A stretch of 58,567 bases of DNA, taken from positions 1 to 58,567 of IMG/VR virus record IMGVR_UViG_3300030331_003634; one strand, written 5' to 3'. A program made the translations under genes and the position numbers. The notes under the pieces are model-generated. The model saw only the letters and a program-made list of their open reading frames with translations, had not been told where the DNA came from and searched no databases. The DNA is from a virus. Taxonomy: Duplodnaviria; Caudoviricetes. Shown one piece after another: positions 1 through 58,567 of the stretch. How positions within the stretch are numbered: position 1 is the first letter of the stretch; each line of letters starts with the position of its first letter.

Positions 1-19
1 TTGGCTAATACACAAATTT
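1..19. repeat. Terminal direct repeat (circular assembly overlap) identical to 58549-58567
   Basis: ttggctaatacacaaattt occurs at both ends of the window. Confidence 0.95.
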
Positions 20-7173: not shown

Positions 7174-7187
7174 TAAAAAAAATTTAG

Positions 7188-7195
7188 TACATTTG
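7188..7195 (+). promoter_or_regulatory. Bacteroidota -7 promoter box (TAnnTTTG)
   Basis: tacatttg in the intergenic gap, 15 nt before the ATG at 7211. Confidence 0.6.
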
Positions 7196-7210
7196 TAAAA
7201 ATTCAAATCA

Positions 7211-16000: not shown

Positions 16001-19000
16001 AAACTACAGTCTTTACTTAAAGATATGGGTGTATTAGACTCAGTAGATTTTGGTTCTGTTACTGAGAACTTTAGATATAATAAGAACGAAGATGGAACTT
16101 TTGAAAAGGCTGGTATTGAAAGTATTAGTTTTTCACTTAATTATCCACTTGGATCTGAAAATATAAACTCTTTAATAAGAGATACGTTTGATAGTCCTTT
16201 CTTTGAAAAGATAAGCCCTAAAACTCAACCTATAAATACGTTTGAAGAAGTTGCAAGGGTTGCAGAGTTACTTGGTTTTCAAGGATTCATATATGACCAT
16301 GTTGGTGGTAAGACAGTTACAGCATGGCAACCAGTTGAAATTGTTGATGATAGATTCCAAGTTAACGATCAGGATCAGAGTGATGTTTATGTCTCTGGAC
16401 TTGGTGCTATAATGTGGGACTTAACAAAACCTATTATAGATGCAGATTACGAACTTGGAGAATGGGCCACAAGAATTAAAGATAAAGACAGACCTTACCC
16501 TATCAGAGCTACTCAGTTGTTTGGAATACCTAAAGGTATGCACTCTAACGCTGAGATAAAAGAGATGGTTATTCTATCTAGAGGTAAACTTGATGAGCAA
16601 ATGCTTATAGCTAACAAAAATCAAAAGAACCTTAAGAAAGTTGTAAACCAAGAGATAAAAAGAATAAAAGATACCCCTGAATATAAACAAGCTACAGCTC
16701 AAGAACAAGAGGCAATGCTATCTAATTTAACACCTGAAGGTCTAAACGACCTTGTAGGTGATATAAATAAAATAATGGAGTTACCTGAACAATCCAAGGT
16801 TAGACAAGCTTTACTTCAGGTTAGAGATCACATAGATACATTAAGTACATACCTATACGAGAATGGTTTAGTTAGTGGACCGATGAGGTATACCATAGAG
16901 GGTAATCTTGGGTTCTATTTAACCAGAGCTTATAAGAAATATGAAAGTAGCTCTTGGAGACAGACAGATCAAGAGGTTATAAGACGTGCTGAATTATTTA
17001 TAGCTGACAAACTTATGTCTGATAAAAACATGAGTAAAGAAGATGCTATGATTCGTGCAAGACAAATGGTTGATAATCTTATTAAAGATAAGATTAGTGT
17101 AACATCATTTAAAAGAAATACAGGTATTGGTGGTTCTATGACCAGAGTGAATGATATATTTAAAGAAAGAAATGAAGATCTTCCTAAAGAGATTAGAGAT
17201 TTACTTGGAGAGATAAACGAACCTTTTGAAAATTACATAAATACAATATCTAAACTATCTAGAACCGTAGTATCTAATCAGTTATATGAAGATCTTATAC
17301 AGATGGGTATGGGTAAGTTTGTAGCCGATCCAAATTTAGATGATGATAAAACATCTCAGATTCCTGGAATATCAAATAAATTAGAGGGAAAAAAATGGGG
17401 TCCATTAGAAGGTAAGTTTGTAGATAATGAAATGTTTGCTATGCTTAACGCTTATGAAAGTAATTCACTTTTTGACTCGTTGGCTTACAAAGCTTATATG
17501 ACTTTTATTTACGGAACCAAAAAGTTTGCCACAGTCCATAACCCAGGGACTCACGCTGTGAACTTAATAGGTAACACATACTTCTCTTTAGCTAATGGTC
17601 ACGTGAATCCTATTAAATTTTTTGACGCTGCTAGAACAGCTATTGGTGAGATAACAAACCTTAGTGGTAAAGAAAGAGAAGCCTTCTATCAAGAATTAAT
17701 ATCTCTTGGTGTTGTTAGCTCATCTGCTTCTTTAGCTGAGATAGTACAAATAGGTCAAGATATAGCTGGAGGTAAAGATGTAACAGCATTTTTAGATAGA
17801 ATGAATCAGGGTAGAGTTAGAAAGGTAGCAACAATACCTTTAAAAGGATTAAGAGGTATAGACAGAGGTTTAACTGCTGCTTATCAAGCTGAAGATGATG
17901 TGTTTAAGATATTTGGTTTTATAACTGAAAAGGCTAGATATATGGAAACAGGTATGAGTGAGGCTGAGGCTAAGGCTATGGCAGCAAGAAACACTAGAAA
18001 CCTTTACCCTAATTATGATATGGTCCCAAACTTAGTTAGAGTTCTTGGTCGTAACCCTTTTGTTGCTACCTTCGTTGCTTTTCAATCTGAAGCCATAAGA
18101 TGCACTAAGAACGCTTTACAATTAGCGTTTCAAGAGATGGGTAATCAAAACCCTAAGGTAAAATTAATGGGTGCTAAACGATTAGCATTCTCTTTATCTG
18201 CCTTAACTTTTATGGAAAACATAACATCTACAGCTATGTCAATGTTGTTTGGATCTGGATCAGATGATGAAGATGACGATATAGAAACTTACGGATTAAG
18301 ACATCTAACAGCTCCTTGGGATAAAGACTCTAAGTTAACGCCTATAGAGAAAGGATATATTACTCCTGATCACGAGGCTTATAATGGTGAGAACAATGGT
18401 AACGCTTATGTTCAATATATGAACGTTTCAAGATTGTCTGGTGGTGGACTTGTAAAAGATATGTTAAGAATTGCTTTTACAGATATGAATACTCCAGAAC
18501 AACAGAGTTCGTTAATGAGAATAGCTTTTACCCTTGGAAGAACATTTTTAAGTCAAGACATGGCTCTTGAAGTTGTTGAGGAGATAAGACAAAATAAAGG
18601 CAATAAAATTTATAACCCTACAGATAATTTCGCATCTAAAATTACAGACATAGCATTACATTTAGGTAAGAATTTAGGTCCTGGTGTTTTAAGAAGAGCT
18701 AAGATTATCAACGACTCTTTAAAAGATAATAGTGATAAGATAACTAATCACGAGCTACTAGCTATGATAGGACTTAGAATTACTACTATTGATGTTAATA
18801 AAGCGTTATTCTTTAGATCTAGGGATATTTATTCTAGTATGAGAAGTAGATCCGAAGGTAAAGGTTATGATCTTAGAGATTCAGGTGTTAAACTTACAAG
18901 GGCTATAGATCCTGGAAGTGAAAGCTTTGATTCTGATATGGCTATTTATTTTAACAGTCTTGTTGATGTTGTAGCTACAGCTAGAAGGTATGGTGTTCCA

Positions 19001-19132
19001 TTAAGTGAAGGAGATAATAACTGTAGAGAGATACTTAGAAAGTCTGGTGTACCATCAAATGTTATAGATAAAGTTATGTATAACGTGTATAATGGAAAAA
19101 ATAAAGATTCTTTATTAATAATGTATAAATAG
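10088..19132 (+). CDS. Giant polyvalent ejection protein (zincin HExxH, two SAM-lyase/DUF3293-like domains, ART-like domain, helical C-terminal region)
   Basis: 3,014 aa; PFHEITH...EEAFAE; YHYS...VFFYTD...GFQGFIY; glycine-rich hydrophobic helices near the N-terminus; RNLYPNY..PFVATFVAF near the C-terminus. Confidence 0.7.
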   Translation: MDEIKAQELYDFFNKEGYDLGDFNNFTSSLEDELKRKELYDFFNKEGYDVGSLENFNLKKKDPSQVSTSPSEVGESVSGGTESLDQSIQDRLNKGSQLDLSVFTTSSDQEAMKSNLEDERSRVYDAFGLNYSERQALLDRKSQIELEKEQARKDLTNAKMTRVGIKQKEGSDRYYIPTDKGLFSGNFLQNLDQAFTGYDYDDESEFRLGSKEEAEEYAIKNYKKSDSVIDTEIEDLERKAKPLSNLDESDVYKALEEQEEDAIKAEEYVNTNLMNSFIDQGFRGERLNQLVEQSGINTAYVKSKAFMVNGQETSPANLEQQVYDRDFITGLQNGSIKVSIDPAVAETEYGKFLKATLDVQSNAGSEVYDIVEEFLAGGASMGAGLLEVGEVLEAPFSDEYIKTGGFLANHVQDYAEQLRDMQRMYKYPGVMEAIRAGAWDDVPALFGKSIAGSSMQIVVMAMARRLGINPKIILGGLGVSAAGQKSLELKELRESGKIDINNFNLALNSIASGGFEVLYEIPTYQMIGAVQKTLRNAGKKAAKQVAKEVSENAFKDIFIKEPGSEMLTEISTMLVDHVTLTEKTNDAGILAKSFDDVVNRVANAGIAGFGMAAGIRTVGGAGAVGVSALNSIKGTDLTNKIVATYQVVNEDGSLGETKELTGAEYKEWSKDPNNIAGEINGDIKVNRYNSDIADAIDDIANTNSEDVVQANNDVNEAGSEANSLLNQIENDLQESTDKAPSDKIAKVKGLLNRMSEIIKETGAKGSQDLKGLTDKLNNIINKAGLSLNDNVLNQNTDNANIQGTETITEIQTESQARALEKGLKDGSNPSVVLSQDGVGISKDGKSISENNITLGKFKSKAAAKRALNNFNKQNSKAAVEERRHAETQKKNNKAFNKVDKKNLDEVSQDDLSNDYNIISASVGGLGKASNQQRNDKLEKVLKKKGLKYKKVQVVENGISKTAFMVEGMESSAALDLAVGFGQKTITSSKDGILHRDGTIESLDGNVYTGPNARNGARIVVMNVNGRKVSVRLGTNKASYSKDFNANNIEDINPFIENLPDNQKKILGHVLRFFSNIKGLNIRVVKTDSAMKKQLESEGYSPERINSIASNRAFYRAKDGTMVLNLQKMNLNTPFHEITHPLVDFIKRENPDLYSRIEQMVEKSDSNIPGSPFKKRWYKNGRRQSGSYMSWAESNYPGKSRAAQIEEAFAEMIGDAAANQFMKDNSKLKQIKDFIAEILEYFNINAEFLKEKNLSDLKLDDVKDIGQLRSNLGAALAKGKTVSVGGVDFNVSKPKNSKEVDSSIREQVDSQQHGDDLGVTEVTNMEGVETQEIRFQPGDYTPNFDLSKVKRGSIKEFNDQKAMLMCIDRSVSGTVESPSGVVKEFNGGMYYSYQDGTGVWAFASKGAASKVLNKAKESGGLVLLVAMSPQSIDGSVEMFDYVMDEIDNSIKKKRVKKKIVLDFINKKLNLKKVQDKLNKEGISKKKVKSINEFRELIMSLDGAFEVRKDLVSKMIKGKDLSSWGIPTREEMYSIVNQSDIKDLTGNPVVAAIRIDTESEFIDSRENSNIKDHPTYPYVVKGEPLMVFNEAVDASELWGDLNLADKYLINPETGQPYSEATTTTRRNAAIMMATPIVNIRAQADDSFTGGRNQYGRFNVTPSEDRITATPQDLFLENVSGLSSKGNWSIITGTVEADGSYDADVNVSNNARLYKELVEEFGAENIVVTDGVYLNKDQGPSYFISGITENRAMQIGKNFDQEGVLTRRGNIFTDGSGMNPASEKVYVGKEALAQDGNSTTPDGVTFSLDINWKSKVPLSTGIRSQVVSGEVNTITEDQLTLLKSTYSEIESKYPDIQVEDGMIKMYHYSDMELDVIDPRSAVMNSYSRKEYKTWGRSRVFFYTDPNIKEGIVGGHYKNTTVFPIDRLYPLTEDPLGLNDLASRAIEIKRNSGDKTQATIKLNATTIDSASMAISKLQSLLKDMGVLDSVDFGSVTENFRYNKNEDGTFEKAGIESISFSLNYPLGSENINSLIRDTFDSPFFEKISPKTQPINTFEEVARVAELLGFQGFIYDHVGGKTVTAWQPVEIVDDRFQVNDQDQSDVYVSGLGAIMWDLTKPIIDADYELGEWATRIKDKDRPYPIRATQLFGIPKGMHSNAEIKEMVILSRGKLDEQMLIANKNQKNLKKVVNQEIKRIKDTPEYKQATAQEQEAMLSNLTPEGLNDLVGDINKIMELPEQSKVRQALLQVRDHIDTLSTYLYENGLVSGPMRYTIEGNLGFYLTRAYKKYESSSWRQTDQEVIRRAELFIADKLMSDKNMSKEDAMIRARQMVDNLIKDKISVTSFKRNTGIGGSMTRVNDIFKERNEDLPKEIRDLLGEINEPFENYINTISKLSRTVVSNQLYEDLIQMGMGKFVADPNLDDDKTSQIPGISNKLEGKKWGPLEGKFVDNEMFAMLNAYESNSLFDSLAYKAYMTFIYGTKKFATVHNPGTHAVNLIGNTYFSLANGHVNPIKFFDAARTAIGEITNLSGKEREAFYQELISLGVVSSSASLAEIVQIGQDIAGGKDVTAFLDRMNQGRVRKVATIPLKGLRGIDRGLTAAYQAEDDVFKIFGFITEKARYMETGMSEAEAKAMAARNTRNLYPNYDMVPNLVRVLGRNPFVATFVAFQSEAIRCTKNALQLAFQEMGNQNPKVKLMGAKRLAFSLSALTFMENITSTAMSMLFGSGSDDEDDDIETYGLRHLTAPWDKDSKLTPIEKGYITPDHEAYNGENNGNAYVQYMNVSRLSGGGLVKDMLRIAFTDMNTPEQQSSLMRIAFTLGRTFLSQDMALEVVEEIRQNKGNKIYNPTDNFASKITDIALHLGKNLGPGVLRRAKIINDSLKDNSDKITNHELLAMIGLRITTIDVNKALFFRSRDIYSSMRSRSEGKGYDLRDSGVKLTRAIDPGSESFDSDMAIYFNSLVDVVATARRYGVPLSEGDNNCREILRKSGVPSNVIDKVMYNVYNGKNKDSLLIMYK
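10109..10234 (+). repeat. Intragenic direct repeat, 2 x ELYDFFNKEGYD, 90-nt period
   Basis: gagctatatgacttttttaataaagagggatacgat vs gagttgtatgacttctttaataaagagggatacgat. Confidence 0.9.
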
Positions 19133-31698: not shown

Positions 31699-31820
31699 TG
31701 TTTGGAAGTATTTACAGTATGATATACAACGTATTTTGGATTACTGATGATTTATGTGTTGTAGTGTGTCAAGATACTTTTGGAAACGTTATTAGTATAT
31801 CATCTAACGATGAGTGTTAA
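31698..31820 (+). CDS. Small hypothetical protein (40 aa), not in ORF track
   Basis: MFGSIYSMIYNVFWITDDLCVVVCQDTFGNVISISSNDEC; TAATG coupling. Confidence 0.45.
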   Translation: MFGSIYSMIYNVFWITDDLCVVVCQDTFGNVISISSNDEC

Positions 31821-32190
31821 AGACACAAAGACAGAGCAGCTAGGAATGAATCCTGGAACTGCTTCAAATAGACTTAAGAAAAACCTACTATTTGAGTTTG
31901 CAAAGAGACTAGATATGCACTGGTGTTATCAGTGCGGTGCAGAAATAAAGGATTGTGACGATTTCACTATAGAACACAAAACCCCTTGGCTTCATTCAGA
32001 AGATCCCAGGGGTTTATTTTTTGATATTGACAACATAGCTTTCTCGCACAAGAGTTGCAACTATAAAGCAGCTAGAAACAGAAAGGGTAAACCTTGTCCT
32101 TCAACGACAGCTTATAGAAATGGCTGCCGATGTGAAGGATGTGTAAAGGTTCAAAGTGATTATAGAAAGTCTTGGGAAAAGAAGTCTTAA
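31810..32190 (+). CDS. HNH endonuclease with C-terminal Cys-rich Zn finger
   Basis: CYQC...TIEHKTPW...DNIAFSHKSCN; CPSTTAYRNGCRCEGC; ATG start at 31810. Confidence 0.8.
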   Translation: MSVKDTKTEQLGMNPGTASNRLKKNLLFEFAKRLDMHWCYQCGAEIKDCDDFTIEHKTPWLHSEDPRGLFFDIDNIAFSHKSCNYKAARNRKGKPCPSTTAYRNGCRCEGCVKVQSDYRKSWEKKS

Positions 32191-34297: not shown

Positions 34298-35329
34298 TTA
34301 CTTTTTCATTTTAGCACCGTACATTGCTTTTTTTTTCATCTTAGCACCATACATAGCTTTCTTCTTCATCTTAGCACCGTACATAGCTTTCTTCATAGAA
34401 GCACCATACATCATTTTGCCTTTTGCTCTTACCATTTTAGCCACAGCTTGCTCACGAGACATCCCTCCACCAGCTTTTGACATATAGTATTTTACTAATT
34501 GTGGTCCTGATGTTGCTTTTTCTGCAATTCCTTCTTTAGCTTGAACAGCTTCTCCTCTTCTTGAGGATTTTACTTTTGGAGTTGAAAGCAATGGATTTTT
34601 AGGTTTGCTATCTTTTTGAAGTTTCTTAGCCTTAGCATCCATTTCTGCTTTTTGCTTCTTAGTAATCTTACCACCATTCTTTAGCATTTTGTCGTCTTTC
34701 TTCATACTTTCCATCATCTCTTTACTTCCCATACGACCACCTATTTTCATGTAACCCATTTTATTTCGTACACTAGTTGGTAGCTTAGATAGACCTTTGG
34801 CATTAGAAGGAACTGGTTTTAGCTTACCACCTTTTTCCATCATCTTCATTTTCATTTTACCCATTGCTGCACCGCCTGGTGCTTTTTTTACTGCTTTCAT
34901 TTTTTTTGTTTTTACAGGTGCAATCATTATAGCTAGAGCACCACCATTTCTAGCGTTAATATCTTTTTGTTTACGTTTAATCATTTTTTTTGTAGTACCA
35001 TCAGCCATCATTCTTTCGTATACTTCTCCAAACCCAACACTTGCTCTAGACTTTTTATTAGCTATAGCTCTTTTAGTTGTAGCTTGATCTTTCTTCTGCT
35101 GCTCTCTAAATTTTTTCATTTCAGCTGATTTCTTAGCAGACTCCTCTGCAGAAGCTAATCCAGACATTCCAGGACTCATAGCTTTTTTAACTTTAGCAGC
35201 TTCTCTTCTAACTTTTAAGTTCGCCTCTCTTTTAGCTCTATTTTTAGCTCTTAACTCTTGTAAAGAAGTTTTTTTAGCTAACTCTTCTGCTTGTTTTCTT
35301 GCTCTTCTTTTTTTTAAAAGTTTTACCAT
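34298..35329 (-). CDS. Highly basic Lys/Met/Ala-rich low-complexity protein (likely start MVKLLKK)
   Basis: Recurrent xxGG/xxGA motifs; C-terminal KKAMYGAKMK repeats. Confidence 0.7.
   Translation of the reverse strand: MVKLLKKRRARKQAEELAKKTSLQELRAKNRAKREANLKVRREAAKVKKAMSPGMSGLASAEESAKKSAEMKKFREQQKKDQATTKRAIANKKSRASVGFGEVYERMMADGTTKKMIKRKQKDINARNGGALAIMIAPVKTKKMKAVKKAPGGAAMGKMKMKMMEKGGKLKPVPSNAKGLSKLPTSVRNKMGYMKIGGRMGSKEMMESMKKDDKMLKNGGKITKKQKAEMDAKAKKLQKDSKPKNPLLSTPKVKSSRRGEAVQAKEGIAEKATSGPQLVKYYMSKAGGGMSREQAVAKMVRAKGKMMYGASMKKAMYGAKMKKKAMYGAKMKKKAMYGAKMKK
34301..34412 (-). repeat. 30-bp tandem repeat (3 copies plus partial) encoding KKAMYGAKMK
   Basis: ttcatcttagcacc[ag]tacatagctttc units. 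Confidence 0.9.
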
Positions 35330-35330
35330 T

Positions 35331-35654
35331 TTATATTTCTTCTGTCCCTTCAAGGACGTTATAAAATTTATTAATCAACCTGTGTGTTTTACTTGTTACA
35401 CGATATTGATTAGGTTGATTTGAGTTCCAAGCTCGTTTTTCAAAAACAAATATGTAGTCACGTTTAACTAACTCAGGAAACATCCTATCGTTAAAGTTTT
35501 TACTAACGTACATATTTTCTCGTATAAACCTTTTGGTAAAAGATCCTTTCTCATCATTTATAAAAAGAAGGAACCTCATTTGATTATCCGTAAGGTCGTA
35601 CTTTCTTTGGAAGGAGTACAGGGTATCACTAAGATACTTCAAGTAATTCCTCAT
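35331..35654 (-). CDS. Putative winged-helix (MarR-like) regulator
   Basis: YDLTDNQMRFLLFI...ELVKRDYI...YRVTSKTHRLI spacing matches wHTH. Confidence 0.6.
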   Translation of the reverse strand: MRNYLKYLSDTLYSFQRKYDLTDNQMRFLLFINDEKGSFTKRFIRENMYVSKNFNDRMFPELVKRDYIFVFEKRAWNSNQPNQYRVTSKTHRLINKFYNVLEGTEEI

Positions 35655-36360: not shown

Positions 36361-36573
36361 ATGGAAATATTTAAAAACGATAACGCTTGGAATGAGAAGG
36401 CTATCGTAGGTTTTATAGCATTTGCTATTATGTGTCTTATAATGATAGCTGACCTTGTTACAGGATGGGTAGGGTCAGACCTAGTAATAAACGAGTTTGT
36501 ATACGACTCCTTCGTGTGGGTTGTGTTAGGCTCGTTTGGCATTTCTGGCGTAGAAAAATTTGCTAAAAAATAA
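36361..36573 (+). CDS. Small two-TM membrane protein (holin-like)
   Basis: Two hydrophobic helices, basic C-terminus. Confidence 0.6.
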   Translation: MEIFKNDNAWNEKAIVGFIAFAIMCLIMIADLVTGWVGSDLVINEFVYDSFVWVVLGSFGISGVEKFAKK

Positions 36574-36887
36574 TGGCGAAAGCTGTAAAGAAAGATAATA
36601 GATTAAAAAAAGCTGGAGTATCTGGATACAATAAAGCTAAACGTACTCCTAATCATCCTACTAAATCACACATAGTTGTTGCAAAGGAAGGTGATAAGAT
36701 TAAAACTATACGTTTTGGTCAGCAAGGTAAAAAGGTAGGGTCATTGTCTGGAACTGCAGGTAAACCAAAAAAAGGTGAGTCAGATAAAATGAAGAAAAAA
36801 AGAGCCTCATTTAAAGCACGTCATGGTAAAAATATAGCTAAAGGTAAAATGTCTGCAGCTTATTGGGCTGATAAAGTTAAATGGTAA
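36573..36887 (+). CDS. Small basic protein (MAKAVKK...)
   Basis: KTIRFGQQG...KRASFKARH...SAAYWADKVKW, a recurrent viral basic-protein family. Confidence 0.75.
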   Translation: MAKAVKKDNRLKKAGVSGYNKAKRTPNHPTKSHIVVAKEGDKIKTIRFGQQGKKVGSLSGTAGKPKKGESDKMKKKRASFKARHGKNIAKGKMSAAYWADKVKW

Positions 36888-36888
36888 T

Positions 36889-37089
36889 ATGGCACAAGCA
36901 ATAAAAAAAGCTAAAAAAGGTAGCACTGTAAATAAAGCAGGTAACTATACAAAACCTGAAATGAGAAAGCGTATATTCAATAGAATAAAGGCTGGAGGAA
37001 AAGGTGGAGCTCCAGGTCAGTGGTCTGCTAGAAAAGCTCAGATGTTAGCTAAAGCTTATAAAGCTGCAGGAGGTGGCTATAGAAACTAA
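36889..37089 (+). CDS. Small basic protein (MAQAIKK...), resembles the N-terminal part of DUF5872-containing proteins
   Basis: YTKPEMR...KGGAPGQWSARKAQMLAKAYK..GGGY. Confidence 0.75.
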   Translation: MAQAIKKAKKGSTVNKAGNYTKPEMRKRIFNRIKAGGKGGAPGQWSARKAQMLAKAYKAAGGGYRN

Positions 37090-37337
37090 TGAAGGCTTTA
37101 AGAAAATCACAAAAAAGTTTAAAAGATTGGGGAGATCAGGATTGGGATTATGTCAGTAAAGAAGATGAAAAAAAGCCTGTAAGCCAAAGAGGTAGATACC
37201 TTCCTAAATCTGTTAGAGAATCTTTAAGTCCTAGTGAAAAAGCTGCTACAAATAGAGCTAAAAAAAGAGCTAGAAGAAAAGGTAAGCAATTTGCAAAATA
37301 CAGTAAAAAAGTAGCCCGAAAAGTAAGAAATGCGTAA
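37089..37337 (+). CDS. Small basic protein (MKALRK...), resembles the C-terminal part of DUF5872-containing proteins
   Basis: SQKSLKDW..QDW...RYLPK...LSPSEKAAT..KK..GKQF. Confidence 0.75.
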   Translation: MKALRKSQKSLKDWGDQDWDYVSKEDEKKPVSQRGRYLPKSVRESLSPSEKAATNRAKKRARRKGKQFAKYSKKVARKVRNA

Positions 37338-39742
37338 TGAAAAAAATATTTTATATAATACTATTTATAAGTTTAAACGCAAATTCTCAAGATAGTTTAT
37401 TTGTAGATTGTGCAGGAAATGAAGCTCCTGAAAACTGGTTGGGTGATGGATTTTGTGATGATGGTTCTTATTCTTTTGATGGTGTCCCTATATATTTTGA
37501 TTGCCCTGAGTTTCAGTTTGATGCTGGTGACTGTGATCCTCCTATAGATAATTCTGTAATACAGGGTTGTACAGATCCTGAGGCAATAAACTACAACCCA
37601 CTTGCACAGGTAGATAATGGTGGGTGTGCTAATGTTTCTTGTGATGATGGTGAAGTAAAAATGTTATTAGAGGTTACGCTAGATCAGTATCCAGGTGAAA
37701 CAGGATGGATACTTACAGATATATCTACGGGAGAGCCAGTAGAAAGTGTTATGGCAGGAGAATATTCTTTTGACCAGGCAAACTCTATGATACCTTATCA
37801 AATATGTGTGCCCGAAACAGGTGTTGAACTTATAGTAAGTGATTCATACGGTGATGGGTTAGCTGGATCTCAATGGGGTGGAACTGATGGTAACTTTGTT
37901 ATTATGGGTGACCTAGAGCCTTGTGGTAGTCCTGATATTATATGGGAGCTGACTGAACCTAATTTTGGAAATGCTGCATACTCAGGAGTTATACAACTAG
38001 AGTATTGTGACATACCTGAAGTTTACGGTTGTACTGACAATACTTACTTTGAGTTTAATCCTTTTGCTACGCAAGATGATGGTAGCTGCGAAACACTACA
38101 TATTTTAGGTTGCATTAACTGGACATCTTTTAATTACAATCCAGAAGCTACATTAAATGAAATAATTCCTGTTTGTGACTACAAGCTTGTAATAGAGGAT
38201 GATGCTGCAGACGGGTGGGGTGAATCACACTTAGCCTTATTTCAAGGAGATAGTTTAGTTGGTATATATACAATGGGTCCTGGATATTATAGTCAAGAGT
38301 TTGATTTACAGCTTAAAACAAATAAGCCAATTGATGTGTATTATTTTGAAGTTGGACAACAACAACAACCTCAAGAAGAGGTGGAGTTTCAAACAATGCA
38401 CAACTCTTTTTATTTAGAAAATTCAGAGGGTGTATACTTAATGCAGGGTGGTACTAATCCTTTTGCTAACAATGGTCAAGGAGCTTTGCAGCCTTTTCAA
38501 CCTCCATTTTGGACAGTATATAGTGCTATGCCTTATTGTGGTGATTACTGTATACCAGTTATAGAAGGTTGTATGGAGCAGGATGCTTTTAATTACGATG
38601 AAGAAGCTAATACAGATAGCGGAGATTGTCTACCTGTAATCGAGGGCTGCACAAACAGTTTAGCATATAATTACAATGAAGAAGCAAATGTAGATGATGA
38701 CTCATGTCAGCCTTATGTTTATGGATGTATGGATGCAAGTGCTTGGAATTACAATCCTTTAGCTAATGTTGCAGATGAATCTTGTCTTTATTTTGGGTGC
38801 ACCGATCAGTTAGCTCTTAATTATGATAGCCTTGCTAATGTAAATAATGATAACTGTATATATCCTGTACCTGGATGTACAGATCCAAACGCCTTTAATT
38901 TTAATGTAGAATCTAATGTTAATGATGGTAGCTGCATTCCTGTAGTGATAGGATGTATGGACCCTACAATGTATAATTATAATGAAGAAGCAAATACAGC
39001 AAGCGATAATTGTATCCCTTTTATATTTGGGTGTACTGATACTACTGCTTTTAATTACGACCCTGTCGCTAACACTAATAATGAGTCTTGCATTCCAATA
39101 ATTTATGGGTGTACAGATCCTAACGCTTTTAACTACGACTTAGAAGCAAATACAGAGGACTTCTCTTGTATTGATATAATGTATGGCTGCACTGATAGTA
39201 CAGCCTTTAATTATGATACACAAGCAAATACTGATAATGGTAACTGCATAGATGTATTAGAGGGATGTATGGATCCTTTTGCTCACAATTATGATGCTGT
39301 ATATAATACAGATGATGGAAGCTGTTTGTATGATGCAGGTTGTGTTGGAGGTCCTGGGGTTCCTTACTGGCTAAATGATACGTGTTATGCTTGGGTTATT
39401 ATGGTTGACCCATATTGTTGTAATAACAACTGGGATGACAAGTGTCAACAATTGTATTGGAGTTGTAGCGGAGATAGCGATCTTTATACTAGAGATTTAC
39501 TTAGAGGTCATAACATAGTTATGTATCCTAATCCTATGAATGACGTATTAAATATATTAACAAATGGTCCTGTAGCAATAAAAGTACATGATGTATCAGG
39601 TAAACTTGTTGTTAAAATAAAACAAAGTCAAACACATAAAGGTTTAAACCAGCTAGATGTAAGTTTACTACCTTCTGGGATTTATAATTTTAGTATAACG
39701 TATGAAGGTAGAACGACAACTGCAAAAGTATTAAAGAGATGA
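37337..39742 (+). CDS. Secreted Cys-rich repeat protein with T9SS type A C-terminal sorting domain
   Basis: Signal peptide ..ANS/Q; WLGDGFCD..C..FQFDAGDC (LNR-like); DSYGDG; 13 GCxDxxAxNYxxxAxxDDGSC-type repeats; YPNP..LNI..DVSGKLV..LDVSLLPSGIY..KVLKR. Confidence 0.85.
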   Translation: MKKIFYIILFISLNANSQDSLFVDCAGNEAPENWLGDGFCDDGSYSFDGVPIYFDCPEFQFDAGDCDPPIDNSVIQGCTDPEAINYNPLAQVDNGGCANVSCDDGEVKMLLEVTLDQYPGETGWILTDISTGEPVESVMAGEYSFDQANSMIPYQICVPETGVELIVSDSYGDGLAGSQWGGTDGNFVIMGDLEPCGSPDIIWELTEPNFGNAAYSGVIQLEYCDIPEVYGCTDNTYFEFNPFATQDDGSCETLHILGCINWTSFNYNPEATLNEIIPVCDYKLVIEDDAADGWGESHLALFQGDSLVGIYTMGPGYYSQEFDLQLKTNKPIDVYYFEVGQQQQPQEEVEFQTMHNSFYLENSEGVYLMQGGTNPFANNGQGALQPFQPPFWTVYSAMPYCGDYCIPVIEGCMEQDAFNYDEEANTDSGDCLPVIEGCTNSLAYNYNEEANVDDDSCQPYVYGCMDASAWNYNPLANVADESCLYFGCTDQLALNYDSLANVNNDNCIYPVPGCTDPNAFNFNVESNVNDGSCIPVVIGCMDPTMYNYNEEANTASDNCIPFIFGCTDTTAFNYDPVANTNNESCIPIIYGCTDPNAFNYDLEANTEDFSCIDIMYGCTDSTAFNYDTQANTDNGNCIDVLEGCMDPFAHNYDAVYNTDDGSCLYDAGCVGGPGVPYWLNDTCYAWVIMVDPYCCNNNWDDKCQQLYWSCSGDSDLYTRDLLRGHNIVMYPNPMNDVLNILTNGPVAIKVHDVSGKLVVKIKQSQTHKGLNQLDVSLLPSGIYNFSITYEGRTTTAKVLKR
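38567..39325 (+). repeat. 10 tandem ~26-aa Cys repeats (GC[TM]DxxAxNYxxxANxDDxSC)
   Basis: Counted in the translation; three further dispersed copies upstream. Confidence 0.9.
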
Positions 39743-40773
39743 AAAAATTATTACTAATATTGTTATTCATTCCTTTAATAGGAAACTCTCAGAGTTTACA
39801 TAAAATATTTAAATATTCTACATTTTATGCTGCAGTCAATGGTGGAACATCTTTAGGGGATAATCAAGTTTGGTCTGTAACATCAGGATCTCTTGAGGAG
39901 AATGTAATAGAAACTCCATTTGATTATACTTTTTCTATAGGTATAAGAAAAATAAAACGATTTGGATATGAGAATAGAGCTTTAACTTTTTATAACGGTA
40001 CAGAAAATTCATACAGTGATGCTGCTACAATTGGTAGAGTAGATGGTTTTGAGTATTTATTTGAAGCTGACTTTGTAAGACGTTTAGGTGTAAATTATAC
40101 TAATCAGCATCATTTTGTAAGGTATGTAGCTGACAATTGGGTTGCTAAGGTAGAATATTTAGAAGATGGTTTTGCTGATATAAAATATTTTGAAGCCTCA
40201 CAAAGATACAGAAAACAAGTAAGGGAGGGCAAGCTTTCGTTCAACGGGGGTTTAGTGCAAAGACTTGCCGAACCTTACGGGTTTGATCCTTTATCTGACT
40301 GGGTACTTGATAATGGTACACTTCATTATACATACCTTGCTCTTCAAGAAGGATACAACATTACCCTAGGGGGAGAGTATTTTTCACCTGACGGAGAGCT
40401 TGTAGCAAACAGTCAAGAGGTATGGGAAGAGGTTGTTATACCACAAGTTATAAATAATTATGTAGAAAAACAAAGAAATTCTATATCTAATATTGTAGAG
40501 TACTCTTTTGTTTTAGGTTTAGACTATTATCATTTTACAAAAGATTTTTGGTTTCATACTTGGGGAAACATTATGCCTTACCACTTAGACACTGATAATA
40601 TATACTCTTATCACAAGTTTAATAATGGTCAATGGATAGACTACTCTCTTGGTTTAATATACGGTTATAGATTTAATAAAAGTTTAGGTATATTTGTAGA
40701 GGGTAGATACAATAAGTATTGGAACAGACAGTGGCACAACTTTAGTGTTGGCCTTAATTATGTAATATTTTAA
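39739..40773 (+). CDS. Putative outer-membrane beta-barrel protein
   Basis: Signal peptide ..GNS/Q; many amphipathic aromatic-rich strands; C-terminal FSVGLNYVIF beta-signal; ATGA-coupled to the T9SS cargo gene. Confidence 0.7.
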   Translation: MKKLLLILLFIPLIGNSQSLHKIFKYSTFYAAVNGGTSLGDNQVWSVTSGSLEENVIETPFDYTFSIGIRKIKRFGYENRALTFYNGTENSYSDAATIGRVDGFEYLFEADFVRRLGVNYTNQHHFVRYVADNWVAKVEYLEDGFADIKYFEASQRYRKQVREGKLSFNGGLVQRLAEPYGFDPLSDWVLDNGTLHYTYLALQEGYNITLGGEYFSPDGELVANSQEVWEEVVIPQVINNYVEKQRNSISNIVEYSFVLGLDYYHFTKDFWFHTWGNIMPYHLDTDNIYSYHKFNNGQWIDYSLGLIYGYRFNKSLGIFVEGRYNKYWNRQWHNFSVGLNYVIF

Positions 40774-40775
40774 TC

Positions 40776-41060
40776 ATGGCAAAAGAATTAAGCGAAGAAA
40801 CATCATTTAATATAAGTTTAAAAACACTAGCAGGTATTGCTGTTCTTATATTTACATTGGTTGGGATGTGGTTCACACTTCAAAATGATATAGCAGATGC
40901 TAAGGAACTACCTCTTCCTCCTGATCCTGAAATTACTCGTATGGAGTATGATATGAAAGATCAGCTTATTAGACAAACTATTATGACCACTCAAGAAGAT
41001 GTAAAAGAGATAAAAAGTCAAATGATTAGAATGGAAGAGAAGATTGATAACTTAAGATAG
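40776..41060 (+). CDS. Single-TM protein with C-terminal coiled coil
   Basis: LAGIAVLIFTLVGMWFTL, then Pro linker, then heptads. Confidence 0.65.
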   Translation: MAKELSEETSFNISLKTLAGIAVLIFTLVGMWFTLQNDIADAKELPLPPDPEITRMEYDMKDQLIRQTIMTTQEDVKEIKSQMIRMEEKIDNLR

Positions 41061-41064
41061 GGTT

Positions 41065-41403
41065 ATGAAAAACTTACTAATTACATTTTTCTTTATATCA
41101 TTATTATCTTTTGGTCAAGACTTTCCTGATGGAATGGTGGCTGTTGAGTTTAATGCTAGTTTTAATAAGTCTAACGAAGTTAGTTGGCTTCCTAAGCTTA
41201 CGGACTGTGAAATAGAAAGAGTTGATATAACAGCAGACGCAAGGTGGTCTAAAGAATATAAGATAGTAGTTGTTCCTACTATTGTAATATTTAATAACAA
41301 TGAAGAAGTAAAAAGATTTCAAGCAAATATAATGATGACTATGGAAGCTACTAAGAGTGAAGTTCAGAACTCTATAGACGAAATAGTAATGGAAGCATTT
41401 TAA
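41065..41403 (+). CDS. Exported thioredoxin-fold protein lacking CxxC
   Basis: Signal peptide ..SFG/Q; VAVEFNASFN in place of F-x-A-x-WCxxC; RVDI..EYKIVVVPTIVIFNNNEEVKRF cis-Pro loop. Confidence 0.7.
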   Translation: MKNLLITFFFISLLSFGQDFPDGMVAVEFNASFNKSNEVSWLPKLTDCEIERVDITADARWSKEYKIVVVPTIVIFNNNEEVKRFQANIMMTMEATKSEVQNSIDEIVMEAF

Positions 41404-41412
41404 ATTTAAATT

Positions 41413-41862
41413 ATGAGTTTAAGTAAAAATTTTTCTCGCTCAGAGATAGAACACAGTAACACAGCAAAAAGATTAGGTATTAGTAATGAAATGTCTGAAA
41501 AACATTTGGAAAGCATGCAAAGGCTTATTGATAATCTCATTCAACCTATGCGTGACGCTATTGGTCCTATTCGTATTAGTAGTGGTTATCGCAGTCCGAA
41601 ACTCAATAAAGCTATTGGGGGATCATCTCGCAGTCAGCACAGCAAAGGTGAAGCTTTGGATTTGCAGTTTTGGGAAAAAGGAAAAATGAATAACAAAGTT
41701 ATTTATGACTGGGTATTAGAATCAGGTGTAGAGTTTGATCAAATGATAAACGAATTTGATTTTTCTTGGATACACATATCTCTTAAATCGAGAGAGAATA
41801 GAAGTCAAGTTCTTGAGGCCTACAAAAATGAAAAAGGAAAGACTGCTTATAAACTAGTTTAG
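41413..41862 (+). CDS. Endolysin, peptidase M15A family
   Basis: LSKNFS, ISSGYRS..LN.AIGG..SQHSKGEALD, FDQMI.E, WIHIS. Confidence 0.9.
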   Translation: MSLSKNFSRSEIEHSNTAKRLGISNEMSEKHLESMQRLIDNLIQPMRDAIGPIRISSGYRSPKLNKAIGGSSRSQHSKGEALDLQFWEKGKMNNKVIYDWVLESGVEFDQMINEFDFSWIHISLKSRENRSQVLEAYKNEKGKTAYKLV

Positions 41863-41864
41863 TT

Positions 41865-42251
41865 ATGAGTAAATTATTAAACTTTTTAGGTGGTGGTGTT
41901 GTAAAACAGGTTGGAGATGTAATAGATAATCTTAGTACATCTGAGGAAGAGAGATTAGAAGCAAAGCGTAAAATGGAGGAAGTTCTTATGCAGGCTGAAT
42001 CGCAAGCACAAGAACAAGTTACTAGACGATGGGAGGCAGACATGAAGTCTGACAACTGGTTATCTAAGAATATTAGACCTTTGATATGTATATTTTTAAC
42101 TGCAATTTTTGTAGTTTTGTCAGTGTTTGATGGTAATATAGGGGAGTTTGTTATTCAAGAAAGCTACATACCTATATATCAAACATTATTAATAACAGTA
42201 TATGGAGCTTACTTTGCAGGTAGGTCTATAGAAAAAATAAGAAAAAAGTAA
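41865..42251 (+). CDS. Holin (3TM/GTA-holin-like)
   Basis: RWEADMKSDNWLSKNIRPL + TM helices + YGAYFAGRSIEK; follows the endolysin. Confidence 0.8.
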   Translation: MSKLLNFLGGGVVKQVGDVIDNLSTSEEERLEAKRKMEEVLMQAESQAQEQVTRRWEADMKSDNWLSKNIRPLICIFLTAIFVVLSVFDGNIGEFVIQESYIPIYQTLLITVYGAYFAGRSIEKIRKK

Positions 42252-55428: not shown

Positions 55429-58400
55429 ATGGCACAAGACAAGAAAGTTTTTACAGGTGGGATGGATAAAGATTCTGATCCTCGCTTGATCAAACAAGGT
55501 GATTACAGAGATGCTTTAAATATAAGAAGTGTATCATCATCAGATTCTACAGCAGGTTCTGTTGAAAACATAGAAGGTAATACCTTAGTTCCTTATAATT
55601 TTATTACTGAAAATAATGAGTATGTAAATGTAGAATCAGGTATAGGTGTCAACGGTACAGGTGTTAGTATAGATGATGTTCAGCCTGATCTTGTAAATCT
55701 ATCTCAAACTATTGTGTTTTCAGGAACAGAGTCAATAAACTATTTCTCTAATTTTACAATAGGTTATGAGAGTGATGAATCTTCTGATCCTGTTTTTATA
55801 TCTACATCTTTTACAACATGGTTTGGTAGTGCACAGTTAACTAATACCTCGCAGACACTTTATGATAAGTTTGGACCAGGAGGTCCTTTATCTTCTTTTA
55901 GCGTAGTAGATCTTATTACAGGTCTTCCTATAAACATAAATGCTTCAGTAGATTTTCTTCCTGGTGATTTATTTGATGGATCAAATAGTTTTTCAATAAC
56001 ATTTACATCTAGTCAGCCTGGTGCTTCTTTTAATTTAATTATAAAAAGCACTTTCTCAAACACAGACTATCCTCAAGGAGAATACGATATAGGGGAAGAT
56101 TACAGTGATCTTAATAATTACTATATTGGGCAAAACACTATTATTAATGGTTCTACTGGATTTTCTCAATCTGATAATGACACTAATGTAGATGATGATG
56201 GAACTACGTTTGGCCCTGGTCCTGCGGATGGTGTAGGATCAACAGTATATGAATTTAACGTTGATGGTGAGCAAGGAACAACTACTCCTGGTGATCCTGA
56301 AAATAATGTTAATATGTATTCTTATGATCAAACTGCTGGAGATGGACTATCTACTGATGATTATATTATAACAGAAGTTTTAAATTTAACTGAGTCAATT
56401 GATAAATTTAACAGTGGTGGTGAGTTTGAGTTTGGTCCATCTCAAGATAGTATATCTCAATTTCTTGTTGACGCTATATCTAATGATAAATTTGGAGAGG
56501 TAATAATAGAAGGTAGTAATGGTAGTACCACTGAGCTATCAAGTATTACAACTAACTTTGTTAAAACTACAAGTCTTGGTGGTAAGTCTTCTAACTTAGG
56601 TAGAAACAACCCAGATGCTGTTCCATACTCTCAGTTAGAATTTTATTTTAATAGTGAAGAAGTTTCAGAGGGTGATGGTTTTAGCATTAATCAAGGTACT
56701 TTAACTTTTAGTGGGGAAGAGGTAAAAGCTGTAAACACTTACAGTCTTAGTGCAAATATAATAGAAGGTAAAAACTTTAAGTTAGATTTAACGGTATCAG
56801 GATTACCATCTGGCAATAGCTTTACTGTTAATGTAGGTAATGACACTTTTGGTACAATAAGTGCTGACGGGTCTCATAGTATATTTATAAACGACCCTAA
56901 CAATTCTTCTGTTATATTTTTACAATTTGATAAAGATTTTACATCTTCTGACACCCTTACCTTAACAAATGTTAGATTATTTTTAGAAAACGAACAGGTA
57001 GATAGACTAACTGTAAGGTTAGCTTCTCCAAACTTTACAAGGTTTAAGTTAGCATTTGCATCAAGTGAGACTGAGCTAAGAAACGACTTAGTAGCTGGTA
57101 GTCCAGTCACTAGTTTATCATCTTGGTATAGTGGTACTGGAATAGAACTTATTAATAAATCTGCTGGAACAACTGATTTATCTTCAGTTAGTGACGATTA
57201 TCAAGAGTTATTATTAGAACTGCAAGAAGCTGAGAATACAATACGTTTGTTGCGGGCTCAAATAAATTCAATAACAGATACATATAATAATCAAATAAGT
57301 ATATTGGAGCAACAATTAGCTGTGGCTAATTCAAATTTAGCTCAAGTTGAGATTGAATTGGCTAATGCAATTCATGCTGAAGATACACTTAGACGTGAGA
57401 ATGAAACACTTAGACAGTCTCAAAGACAATTGCAAAATGTTATTGCAACTTTTATAGACCAAGCAATAGATCCAAAGCCAGAAATACTTGTTAATCTTTA
57501 TGCTGGAAACATAGATACTATCAAGGAGTCACTTAATTTAATAGCTGCAGATTTAGTTAACCTAACTACAACTACTATTGTTAACTCTGAGCTTCAAGAT
57601 AAAGTAAATGATTTGACAGCAGATAATGCAAATTTACAAGCTCAGTTAGAGGAGTTATCGAATATAATTATTACCGAAAATGACACAGATATAAGTTTAA
57701 TTCAAGCTGCAACTGAACTTAAAAATAAAAATACTCAATTAGATGAAGAACTTTCTACTCTTCAAAACAACATAAATATTGTATTGTTTGGTGATGCAGA
57801 TGATCTAAATAATGCAGGTGGTTTGTATAGTGAATTAGGATTCCCAGTTTCTCAATCTGAATTTACTTTAACCAGTCTTGCTACTTTAATTTCTAGTACT
57901 CTTTCTGCTCAACAATCCTCTTATGAATCACAAATTGATATTCTTAATGTTGATTTAAGTAATGCTCAATCTTTAGCAACTTCTGCAGAACTTTCTGCTG
58001 CCTTTGCAGAAGGTGCTGCTTCAGTAGACATTACTTCAGATAACGCAATTTTAGCTGCTGCTGCCTTTGCAGATGGTGTTGCTTCAGTTCCAGTTATCAC
58101 TCAAGAAAATTTTGATACTGCTATAGAACTTGCTAATGCTGATGTTTTATTTGCACAAGAAGCTGTAGTTAACACCCAACAAGCTTTAGATGATGCTCAG
58201 GCAGCACTGGATGCTGGTATTGAAGATTTTGGTGACACTAATGTTGGTCCTATGCCTGGTCTTAGGTTAGCAGTAGATAACGCTATTGCTAACCTTGCAG
58301 CTGCTGAGTTACAAGTTAATATAAACCAAGCTTTTTTTAATGGTGTTCAATCAATAACAGCGGATGATGGGATTAGTCAATCTGATGTTGAAGCTGCTTA

Positions 58401-58567
58401 TTTAGAGGGTGTAGCTTCAGTAATTCCTGATGATGGTATAACGCAGGATGATGTAGATGCTGCTGTTGCTAATGCTGCTGAGGCTGTTGCTGCTGCTGAA
58501 GCTGCTGCTGCTGCTGCTGAGGAAGCAAAGGTGTTAGCTCAAGGTGAATTGGCTAATACACAAATTT
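55429..58567 (+). CDS. N-terminal 1,040 aa of the giant tail stabilisation protein (continues at position 1); not in ORF track
   Basis: MAQDKKVFTGGMDKDSDPRLIKQGDYRDALNIR..GSVENIEGN; frame apparently open to the window end and in frame with 1..7173. Confidence 0.85.
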   Translation, partial: MAQDKKVFTGGMDKDSDPRLIKQGDYRDALNIRSVSSSDSTAGSVENIEGNTLVPYNFITENNEYVNVESGIGVNGTGVSIDDVQPDLVNLSQTIVFSGTESINYFSNFTIGYESDESSDPVFISTSFTTWFGSAQLTNTSQTLYDKFGPGGPLSSFSVVDLITGLPININASVDFLPGDLFDGSNSFSITFTSSQPGASFNLIIKSTFSNTDYPQGEYDIGEDYSDLNNYYIGQNTIINGSTGFSQSDNDTNVDDDGTTFGPGPADGVGSTVYEFNVDGEQGTTTPGDPENNVNMYSYDQTAGDGLSTDDYIITEVLNLTESIDKFNSGGEFEFGPSQDSISQFLVDAISNDKFGEVIIEGSNGSTTELSSITTNFVKTTSLGGKSSNLGRNNPDAVPYSQLEFYFNSEEVSEGDGFSINQGTLTFSGEEVKAVNTYSLSANIIEGKNFKLDLTVSGLPSGNSFTVNVGNDTFGTISADGSHSIFINDPNNSSVIFLQFDKDFTSSDTLTLTNVRLFLENEQVDRLTVRLASPNFTRFKLAFASSETELRNDLVAGSPVTSLSSWYSGTGIELINKSAGTTDLSSVSDDYQELLLELQEAENTIRLLRAQINSITDTYNNQISILEQQLAVANSNLAQVEIELANAIHAEDTLRRENETLRQSQRQLQNVIATFIDQAIDPKPEILVNLYAGNIDTIKESLNLIAADLVNLTTTTIVNSELQDKVNDLTADNANLQAQLEELSNIIITENDTDISLIQAATELKNKNTQLDEELSTLQNNINIVLFGDADDLNNAGGLYSELGFPVSQSEFTLTSLATLISSTLSAQQSSYESQIDILNVDLSNAQSLATSAELSAAFAEGAASVDITSDNAILAAAAFADGVASVPVITQENFDTAIELANADVLFAQEAVVNTQQALDDAQAALDAGIEDFGDTNVGPMPGLRLAVDNAIANLAAAELQVNINQAFFNGVQSITADDGISQSDVEAAYLEGVASVIPDDGITQDDVDAAVANAAEAVAAAEAAAAAAEEAKVLAQGELANTQI
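58549..58567. repeat. Terminal direct repeat identical to 1-19
   Basis: ttggctaatacacaaattt. Confidence 0.95.

Follow-up and report, generated by a model that had tools for sequence, protein, structure and literature searches.

Two-component spanins, exemplified by Rz and Rz1 of phage lambda, are encoded next to the endolysin and holin genes and consist of one protein that spans the membrane near its N-terminus and has a helical part in the periplasm, and of an exported partner, a short, proline-rich lipoprotein, whose gene lies directly downstream. Spanin mutants have been reported to arrest as spherical cells at millimolar concentrations of divalent cations. Phages may also encode outer-membrane barrels, such as Lom of lambda, and BFVD contains porin-like and OMP-like open reading frames (ORFs) from both uncultured and cultured phages. 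Finally, phages are known to encode cargos of their hosts' type IX secretion system (T9SS): a T9SS type-A cargo has been reported for 'Cryophage', and is called a unique occurrence in the passage concerned (Bellas et al. 2020, PMC7468147), and ORFs with T9SS sorting domains are described in the relevant text on gut phage contigs (de Jonge et al. 2019, PMC6949934). Here, we consider four adjoining genes, g1 to g4, in the viral record IMGVR_UViG_3300030331_003634, which comprises 58,567 bases, is 93% complete according to CheckV and is referred to, in its full length, as the window. The four genes sit in a late block beside the genes of an endolysin and a holin, and encode, in this order, a T9SS cargo, a predicted outer-membrane beta-barrel, a bitopic membrane protein and an exported thioredoxin-fold protein. 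Our reading, held tentatively, is that g3, g4 and g2 form a lysis-associated envelope module, possibly a spanin analogue free of lipoprotein, and that g1 is a T9SS-exported surface protein which has been added to it.

According to this reading, g3 would have its anchor in the inner membrane and its helical part would extend into the periplasm, g4 would serve as a periplasmic adaptor, and g2 would be the outer-membrane anchor, supplied by the phage and with its conserved face turned toward the periplasm. Together, the three proteins would carry out the envelope step of lysis after the holin and the endolysin, and the trio would in effect do without a lipoprotein what a two-component spanin does, and may have been assembled stepwise in evolution. 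The gene g1, translationally coupled to g2, would be a later addition, and its product would be exported by the host T9SS and then either coat the infected cell or be released from it. The more specific proposal, that g3, the redox-dead g4 and the phage barrel constitute a three-part device which breaks the outer membrane and replaces the lipoprotein spanin in a large lineage of marine Bacteroidota phages, many of them with a grafted T9SS cargo, we consider rather doubtful.

The likeness to the two-component spanins lies in the position of the trio beside endolysin and holin, in the N-terminal span and helical part of g3, and in the exported g4 encoded directly downstream. The trio differs from them in that g4 has a 95-residue thioredoxin fold and is not a short, proline-rich lipoprotein, in that the outer-membrane anchorage would have to come from a barrel, in that its sequences resemble those of no spanin family, and in that the set is absent from some close relatives. 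No spanin was found among the approximately 65 ORFs of the window that were scanned against PHROGs, and no lipoprotein ORF is embedded within g3 or g4.

The distribution of the genes among related phages was followed with two retrievals. When IMG/VR was scanned with g2, 92 related stretches were obtained and 80 loci were kept, some of them cut short where the contig ends; g3 and g4 were each detected in 79 of these, and g1 in 78, whereas 67 showed the endolysin and 55 the holin. Altogether, more than 90 independent phage contigs have the set, which answers the question of co-occurrence raised by the initial annotation. Retrieval with the terminase, which is independent of the genes in question, gave 308 related stretches, and the 25 loci with at least 8.5 kb upstream were used. 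Endolysin and holin are found in all 25, a 70-amino-acid (70-aa) membrane protein in 24, g3 in 23, g4 in 21, g2 in 17 and g1 in 16; all four genes are present in 16 loci, and every locus with g1 also has g2 (16/16). Of the four proteins, the one that travels most often with the endolysin and the holin is accordingly g3 (23/25), followed by g4, the barrel and, last, the cargo. From this stepwise drop follows that the four genes are not one indivisible unit. The initial annotation had described them as a single cassette centred on the cargo, and this description is not supported in that form: occurrence falls from g3 over g4 and g2 to g1, and without cargo there persist the barrel, g3 and g4 in the locus designated L090, and the barrel and g3, with a g4-like ORF, in L093 as far as its contig extends.

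Individual loci illustrate the different combinations. In L210, g2, g3 and g4 occur without g1, and a 181-residue ORF that resembles one g1 domain, as judged by eye, lies 3' of g4. Four loci (L183, L191, L195, L196) have g3 and g4 with neither g2 nor g1, and in L186 and L187 a g3-like ORF of 109 aa stands alone and overlaps the start of the endolysin. Where all four genes are missing, as in L177, the place before the endolysin is taken by a 77-aa ORF that has, by eye, a hydrophobic N-terminal span and a helical-looking tail. The order in L090, where the barrel has ~30% identity, is M15 endolysin, barrel, g3 and g4, with no cargo. In L091, L093 and L094, which like L090 have barrels among the most distant ones (~30% identity), a g3-like gene is situated 3' of the barrel and is accompanied by a g4-like gene, recognised by tblastn in L091 and L094 and by ORF reading in L093; there is no g1 in the stretch of L091 that was read, whereas too little downstream sequence is present in L093 and L094 for a statement on g1. 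Permuted orders are g3-g4-g1-g2 in L078 and g2-g3-g4-g1 in L080. In a freshwater relative with 47.6% identical terminase (L132, MW202828.1), the position of g2 to g4, directly 5' of the M15 endolysin, is taken (5920-7465) by a 150-aa multi-span protein and by a protein of 207 aa whose N-terminus holds a membrane anchor and whose C-terminus is rich in beta structure.

In the window, the four genes (37337-41403) are tightly coupled and lie directly 5' of endolysin and holin, with ORFs, overlap and gaps as initially annotated: g1 and g2 overlap by 4 nucleotides (nt; ATGA), and the gaps are 2 nt between g2 and g3, 4 nt between g3 and g4, and 9 nt between g4 and the endolysin (Table 1). Over 93 related loci, the 4-nt overlap recurs in 76 of the 81 that have both g1 and g2, and the gap from g2 to g3 is at most 4 nt in 77 of 87, from which follows that the coupling is not due to chance. 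The gap from g4 to the endolysin is at most 11 nt in 54 of the 67 loci retrieved via g2 in which an endolysin was detected, and that from g3 to g4 exceeds 20 nt in 23/86. In two loci, L007 (7323-7625) and L058 (7325-7627), the space between g3 and g4 holds an extra 100-aa exported membrane protein that matches DUF2279 with 36.1 bits and phrog_26616, a family labelled 'lipoprotein'. A scan for promoters and terminators gave counts equal to those of shuffled sequences, with scan models that do not cover Bacteroidota promoters.

Table 1. Features of the window, with positions counted from its first base.
Feature	Position	Strand	Character	Family matches
g1	37337..39742	+	801 aa, exported Cys-rich cargo with T9SS type-A C-terminal domain (CTD)	
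g2	39739..40773	+	344 aa, predicted exported outer-membrane beta-barrel	
g3	40776..41060	+	94-aa bitopic membrane protein	
g4	41065..41403	+	112 aa, exported thioredoxin-fold protein without redox site	
Endolysin	41413..41862	+	M15 peptidase	PF08291, 59.9 bits; phrog_894, E 2.2e-35
Holin	41865..42251	+	three-transmembrane, GTA type	phrog_3427, E 1.5e-29; PF11351, 30.9 bits
70-aa membrane protein	36361..36573	+	two hydrophobic spans, upstream of lysis region and conserved together with it	
Three small proteins	36573-37337	+	very basic	phrog_7595, 17747, 14910
Giant ORF	1-7173	+	2390 aa, 5' end open	crAss muzzle C-terminal domain, 27.6 bits
Giant ORF	10088-19132	+	3014 aa	DUF3293
Giant ORF	55429-58566	+	1046 aa, 3' end open	
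HNH endonuclease	31810-32190	+	in short + strand island of early region	phrog_23251, E 3.2e-34
Lys-rich protein	34298-35353	-	351 aa, C-terminal tandem 'AMYGAKMKKK' repeats	no family match

The most widespread of the four proteins, g3, begins with a short N-terminus and a hydrophobic span (residues ~18-36); a stretch rich in Pro leads on to the conserved helical part (residues 55-94), and the topology was inferred from charge. Of 88 homologues, 80 are 94 aa long, and an alignment of 17 sequences has a mean column identity of 66% and 15 invariant positions. Against PHROGs, g3 gives weak matches only, to families of unassigned function; in the ESM Atlas it falls with viral clusters only, the nearest named cluster, DUF2730 (0.83), being a weak lead, and a tblastn search of 50,697 deposited phage records at E<=1 returned no match.

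That g3 and then g4 are the most widespread of the genes and lie nearest to endolysin and holin would also be expected if they controlled the timing of lysis. The two proteins would then regulate the holin, as an antiholin or as a sensor for lysis inhibition, the outer membrane would not be attacked, and the barrel would have arrived later with a separate role. Small periplasmic and membrane regulators of holins are found in T4, and the strongly conserved g3 stands beside a holin which is itself strongly conserved (85-100% identity in many loci). Regulation of this kind leaves unexplained, however, that most genomes have, next to g3 and g4, a barrel whose periplasmic face is conserved, and the window would still be without an outer-membrane lysis function; furthermore, neither protein has similarity to known antiholins. 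We regard this explanation as distinctly unlikely.

The proteins encoded by g1, g2 and g4 each begin with a hydrophobic leader of 17 residues which is followed by Gln, as read from the sequence: NANS is followed by QD in g1, IGNS by QS in g2, and LSFG by QD in g4. The Sec-type leader of g1, identified by eye and by regular expression, is MKKIFYIILFISLNANS, after which comes Q. With a strict regular expression, Gln is found after the leader in 62/69 homologues of g1, 78/90 of g2 and 84/86 of g4. Most sequences that fail still have, by eye, a Q after an end that contains Lys or Arg; the exceptions are the barrel of L089, where there is no such Q, and g1 of L020 and L030, whose starts look truncated or mis-called. 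The initial annotation had pointed to Sec leaders ending before Gln in three of the four proteins and to the Q-rule of Bacteroidota, and the pattern is indeed kept across relatives and fits the rule for Bacteroidetes signal peptides as it is stated in the passages concerned (PMC5837995, PMC10653852). Leaders that obey the Q-rule have been noted earlier in Porphyromonas phages (PMC10367356).

Like the thioredoxins (PF00085), g4 keeps a fold-level signature and the cis-Pro loop; unlike them, it has an invariant Asn for each of the two active-site cysteines, is exported, and ends in an invariant Phe. It scores 22.5 bits against PF00085, for which the cut-off is 23.5, over residues 47-88 only, and matches TIGR01068 at E 7.4e-5 and PDB thioredoxins at E 0.0018; the g4 profile, in turn, matches ordinary thioredoxins in 398/401 genomes with ~30 bits. 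Leader and thioredoxin signature together agree with the first description of g4 as an exported thioredoxin-fold protein. Residues N34 and N37 are invariant in 17/17 sequences, with N34-x-x-N37 in place of CxxC, and the NxxN columns align with the WCxPC motif of 8 host thioredoxins; P71, the cis-Pro, and F112 at the C-terminus do not vary either. Judged from these alignments, g4 would be a redox-dead thioredoxin-fold protein. The g4 homologue of L084 (2915-3253) has a lipobox-like LVALASC and may be a lipoprotein variant.

For g2, an AlphaFold2 (AF2) model built from a 30-sequence alignment (pLDDT 78.7, pTM 0.71) has 14 strands according to DSSP, a helical insertion of 74 residues (178-251), and a 31-residue loop (72-102) which is conserved in sequence yet modelled at pLDDT <50, with low confidence over residues 74-101. 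The best PDB fold matches (Foldseek, VIA) are membrane beta-barrels, nearly all of them from the bacterial outer membrane, with Z falling from 10.7 to 8.2 in a flat list that includes OpcA, CymA, OmpG, TamA, Tsx, OMPLA and PorV. In the model, therefore, the fold class appears clear, and no family can be named. The outer-membrane barrel of the initial annotation is thereby upheld by prediction, as is its aromatic beta-signal: the protein ends in ...NFSVGLNYVIF, that is, in GLNYVIF, where G338 and N340 are nearly invariant, whereas R, N or K is the last residue in the remotest homologues (L090, L091, L093). No Pfam, NCBIfam or PHROG family was matched by g2, alone or together with 30 diverse homologues; its alignment profile gave no match at E<=1 among PDB sequences, and tblastn gave none in the 50,697 deposited phage records. 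The nearest BFVD structure is an unnamed viral protein, A0A516LKJ4 (TM 0.74), which is the only close structural relative, and the ESM Atlas returns viral clusters only, with OMP_b-brl (0.93) as the nearest named cluster and a weak lead. The conserved residues S256, H273 and D301 might point to an enzyme like OMPLA, whose fold match, with Z 9.5, is tied with unrelated barrels. Like other phage-encoded outer-membrane barrels, g2 is Sec-exported and has a C-terminal aromatic residue; unlike them, it has 14 strands, a 74-residue helical insertion, no family, and fixed neighbour genes.

The orientation of the barrel bears on its role. When the N-terminus is taken as periplasmic, as in known barrels, and strand parity is followed, 12 of 79 positions in the periplasmic halves of the strands are conserved at 0.9 or above, versus 2 of 82 in the outer halves; the conserved loop 72-102 comes to lie on the periplasmic side, and the outer loops have mostly 2-4 residues. 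Since the conserved residues and the long conserved loop both lie on the periplasmic side of the model, g2 fits an outer-membrane anchor for periplasmic partners, and would fit less well as a surface-exposed receptor or adhesin.

Two barrel copies deviate in other ways. The distant one in L089 (5583-7697), with its leader lacking Gln, comes after a small protein in which an MscS beta-domain is recognised (25.4 bits), and the g3-like ORF at its 3' side is longer and carries a poly-Pro linker and an extension at its N-terminus; the host of L089 may lie outside Bacteroidota. A T2SSE/MshEN motif suspected in this extension gave no such Pfam match and was dropped. The barrel homologue of L080 (6001-7050) has IITSC in its leader and may be a lipoprotein variant.

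The layout of g1 comprises the leader (1-17), a Cys-rich N-terminus (25-66), two beta-sandwich domains (~106-219 and ~279-371), 13 repeats, a Cys-rich helical piece (669-711) and the CTD (729-801). There are 42 cysteines, and a two-Cys repeat of ~26 aa occurs 13 times, once at 77, twice at 231/258 and ten times in tandem over 411-668; the initial annotation had put the numbers at about 40 Cys and 13 repeats. It had also recognised a type-A CTD at the C-terminus, and here the 73 last residues (729-801) match positions 1-72 of the 72 of TIGR04183 with 43.5 bits, against a cut-off of 23, and the C-terminus matches PF18962 with 50 bits, against a cut-off of 27. The TIGR04183 cut-off is passed by 14/16 diverse g1 homologues, L080 and L086 failing. 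In the AF2 model of g1 (mean pLDDT 71.7), the CTD (residues 727-800) is an Ig-like beta-sandwich with pLDDT ~85, and its best PDB match is the CTD of NucA in the F. johnsoniae T9SS complex (8glk_D; TMt 0.81, root-mean-square deviation 1.8 Å, 31% identity), followed by the CTDs of RgpB, PorZ, mirolase and RemA. Hidden Markov model and fold together confirm that g1 carries a genuine type-A T9SS CTD. The 'LNR-like' label originally given to the N-terminus fares differently: g1 has no match to PF00066 (Notch/LNR) at E<=0.1, and the stretch 25-66 has four Cys, where an LNR repeat has six.

As an exported phage protein of this type, g1 is a further example of something already known. Like the cargos of Cryophage and the gut phages, as these appear in the passages cited above, it has an N-terminal leader and a TIGR04183-type CTD, is presumed to use the host T9SS, and belongs to a kind of cargo that varies between related phages. 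It differs from them in that the cargos in those passages are glycoside hydrolases, a PA14 protein and BACON-repeat proteins, whereas g1 is a Cys-repeat protein with no recognised enzyme domain, and in that g1 is coupled to a phage barrel beside lysis genes, whereas the same passages present no barrel, bitopic or thioredoxin-like partner. Among the 50,697 deposited phage records, g1 finds matches through single repeats only (Synechococcus phage S-CAM3 and one marine virus). When the whole g1 model is compared by Foldseek, the two beta-sandwich domains match C2, FN3 and lectin-like folds at low quality only, from which no function follows; as modelled, these domains and the disulfide-rich repeats suggest binding rather than catalysis. 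Variant cargos are seen in L210 (5939-6484), where the 181-aa ORF after g4 is a 'mini-cargo' with one 'GDGW' beta-sandwich-type domain and a tail shorter than the g1 CTD, and in L080 (7661-9901), where a 746-aa ORF has a similarly shorter tail that falls below the TIGR04183 cut-off.

A true T9SS cargo with domains of binding type could be the centre of the system rather than an addition to it. The barrel and the cargo, aided by g3 and g4, would then remodel the surface of the infected cell, so as to mask a receptor, exclude superinfection, keep progeny off debris or glue cells to particles, with no part in lysis. The coupling of g1 to g2 by the 4-nt overlap in 76/81 loci agrees with this, as does the length of full-length g1 copies, 654-1114 aa, which varies as in surface proteins under selection; phage-encoded outer-membrane proteins are a known kind, as the BFVD entries show, and, like genes for accessory fitness traits, the cassette can be dispensed with (L177, L178). 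Against remodelling stands that g3, g4 and g2 occur without the cargo, and that the barrel has mostly short outer loops and an outer half that is the less conserved one. The genes stand, besides, in a late block by the lysis genes of a phage in which no integrase was found, from which follows that long-term lysogen conversion is unlikely, and PADLOC finds no match for them. Judged by gene content, surface remodelling would account for the distribution less well than a lysis-linked g3, g4 and g2 with g1 as an add-on, and we think it on balance unlikely.

Another way to place g1 at the centre is to assume that the other three genes are its private helpers, with g2 as a PorP/SprF-like anchor or a PorV-like shuttle, g4 as a chaperone for the 42 cysteines and g3 as an assembly factor. 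The g1-g2 pair does resemble the pairs of cargo and PorP/SprF in that the barrel gene adjoins a T9SS cargo gene, and g1 never occurs without g2 in the terminase-retrieved set (16/16). It differs from them in that g2 has no sequence or profile similarity to PorP/SprF, in that the cargo is of type A and not of type B, and in that the barrel is also found without cargo. As a candidate PorP/SprF, g2 was rejected: 0/30 homologues match PF11751 at E<=0.01, and hhalign against 14 PorP/SprF sequences gives 3% probability, with the leader alone aligned. PorV (8gl6_F) is among the fold matches of g2, with Z 8.6, in a tie with many unrelated barrels. To this is added that g2, g3 and g4 exist without g1, and that g4, as a putative chaperone for disulfides, has no redox cysteines. 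The helper hypothesis is in our view improbable.

Returning to the reading in which g3, g4 and g2 serve the envelope step of lysis, several observations weigh against it. The leader of g4 has no Cys at the cleavage site, and g4 is not a lipoprotein; therefore the defining feature of an o-spanin is missing. Beyond its membrane span g3 has only ~58 residues, which is short for the periplasmic part of an i-spanin, and it matches no PHROG annotated as spanin. Where the barrel has 29% identity g3 has 55%, and binding to a conserved host target fits this unusually high conservation as well as a spanin role does; regulation of the holin would also fit it. Two loci whose terminase is 90% identical, L177 and L178, have none of g1 to g4, from which follows that the set is dispensable in the lineage. 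Nor is the neighbourhood invariably close, as tail-fibre-like genes lie between the trio and the endolysin in L058 and two genes lie between g3 and g4 in L078. Finally, the topology of g3 is inferred from charge only, and the orientation of the barrel from strand parity only.

The phage itself is of lytic type, a podophage with marine Flavobacteriia-like hosts. A large terminase, a portal and capsid-type structural proteins mark the window as a phage; it also encodes a DnaB helicase, Erf and an exonuclease. Neither a tyrosine nor a serine integrase nor, in its 58,567 bases, a tRNA was found, in keeping with the initial annotation of a phage with no recognisable integrase. Flavobacteriia are indicated as hosts by the closest cultured relatives of the terminase, which are those of Flavobacterium, Cellulophaga, Tenacibaculum and Maribacter phages, with 37% identity for the Flavobacterium phages listed. 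PorP_SprF is present in 26/26 genomes of the candidate host family, from which follows that a T9SS is at hand there.

All four genes are restricted to phages. When GTDB was scanned with one genome per species, g2 gave 13 matches only (L082-L094), in metagenome-assembled genomes (MAGs) labelled Sphingobacteriales, Flavobacteriales, Parvibaculum, Nitrosopelagicus, Rickettsiales, Maricaulis, Pelagibacter and Woesearchaeota, and a distant barrel homologue as query gave none. We take these 13 to be mis-binned phage contigs, since the taxonomy of the MAGs is incoherent and at least one contig, that of L093, carries a giant ORF of the type seen in the window. In 401 genomes of the Flavobacteriaceae, the family of one of these MAGs, the barrel profile has one match, the copy of that MAG itself on its phage contig, and one marginal match, and the g3 profile has one true match and seven marginal ones. 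The record is a metagenomic assembly, and otherwise nothing was found to suggest that the genes are an assembly artefact or a host-derived chimeric insert. Gene order is kept in 78-80 of 80 viral contigs and in 16/25 terminase-retrieved loci, G+C is even over the region of g1 to g4 (0.33-0.35), the barrel is not found in 400 other genomes of the host family, and near-identical DNA occurs in marine metagenome runs from several studies, none of the 20 listed being an RNA run. The co-occurrence in many phage contigs rules out a chimeric insert, and the probability of an artefact is practically negligible.

All called genes from 35753 to the right-hand end of the window are on the + strand. In 24/25 terminase-retrieved relatives the 70-aa protein recurs, at identities that reach 100% and in every case upstream of the lysis region. 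Pfam, PHROG and PADLOC searches assigned it to no family, and a role as a further holin or as an antiholin is conceivable. PADLOC gave no match either for g1 to g4, for a 201-aa ORF or for a 516-aa ORF. The DNA that encodes the three small basic proteins between the 70-aa protein and g1 shares 70-83% identity with parts of the DNA of pelagiphages, roseophages, Methylophilales phages, Puniceispirillum phage HMO-2011 and cyanophages, and such conservation across phages with unrelated hosts is unusual. When the window is joined head to tail, the open ends of the 2390-aa and 1046-aa ORFs are out of frame, and from this follows that sequence is missing between them.

In the literature searched, with subscription journals and supplementary tables outside its scope, there is no description of a trio of barrel, bitopic protein and NxxN thioredoxin-fold protein, nor of how the outer membrane is breached in these phages. 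Of practical interest is that MAGs which bear the names of archaea and alphaproteobacteria contain, apparently through mis-binning, contigs of this phage lineage. Structures worth solving are those of the NxxN thioredoxin-fold protein and of the 14-strand barrel without a family, and g1 is a marine example to set beside the small number of earlier reports in which phages use the T9SS of the host. The module is very common in marine metagenomes, with 3534 homologues of g2 at E<=0.001, at least 8000 of g3, the largest family of the set, and 308 terminase stretches, and the stepwise occurrence of g3, g4, g2 and g1 provides a natural 'deletion series' for comparison. In a window without a recognisable spanin, the trio is a testable candidate for the outer-membrane step of lysis, and should the proposed mechanism prove correct, the trio would be a novel form of spanin function and not belong to a spanin family.

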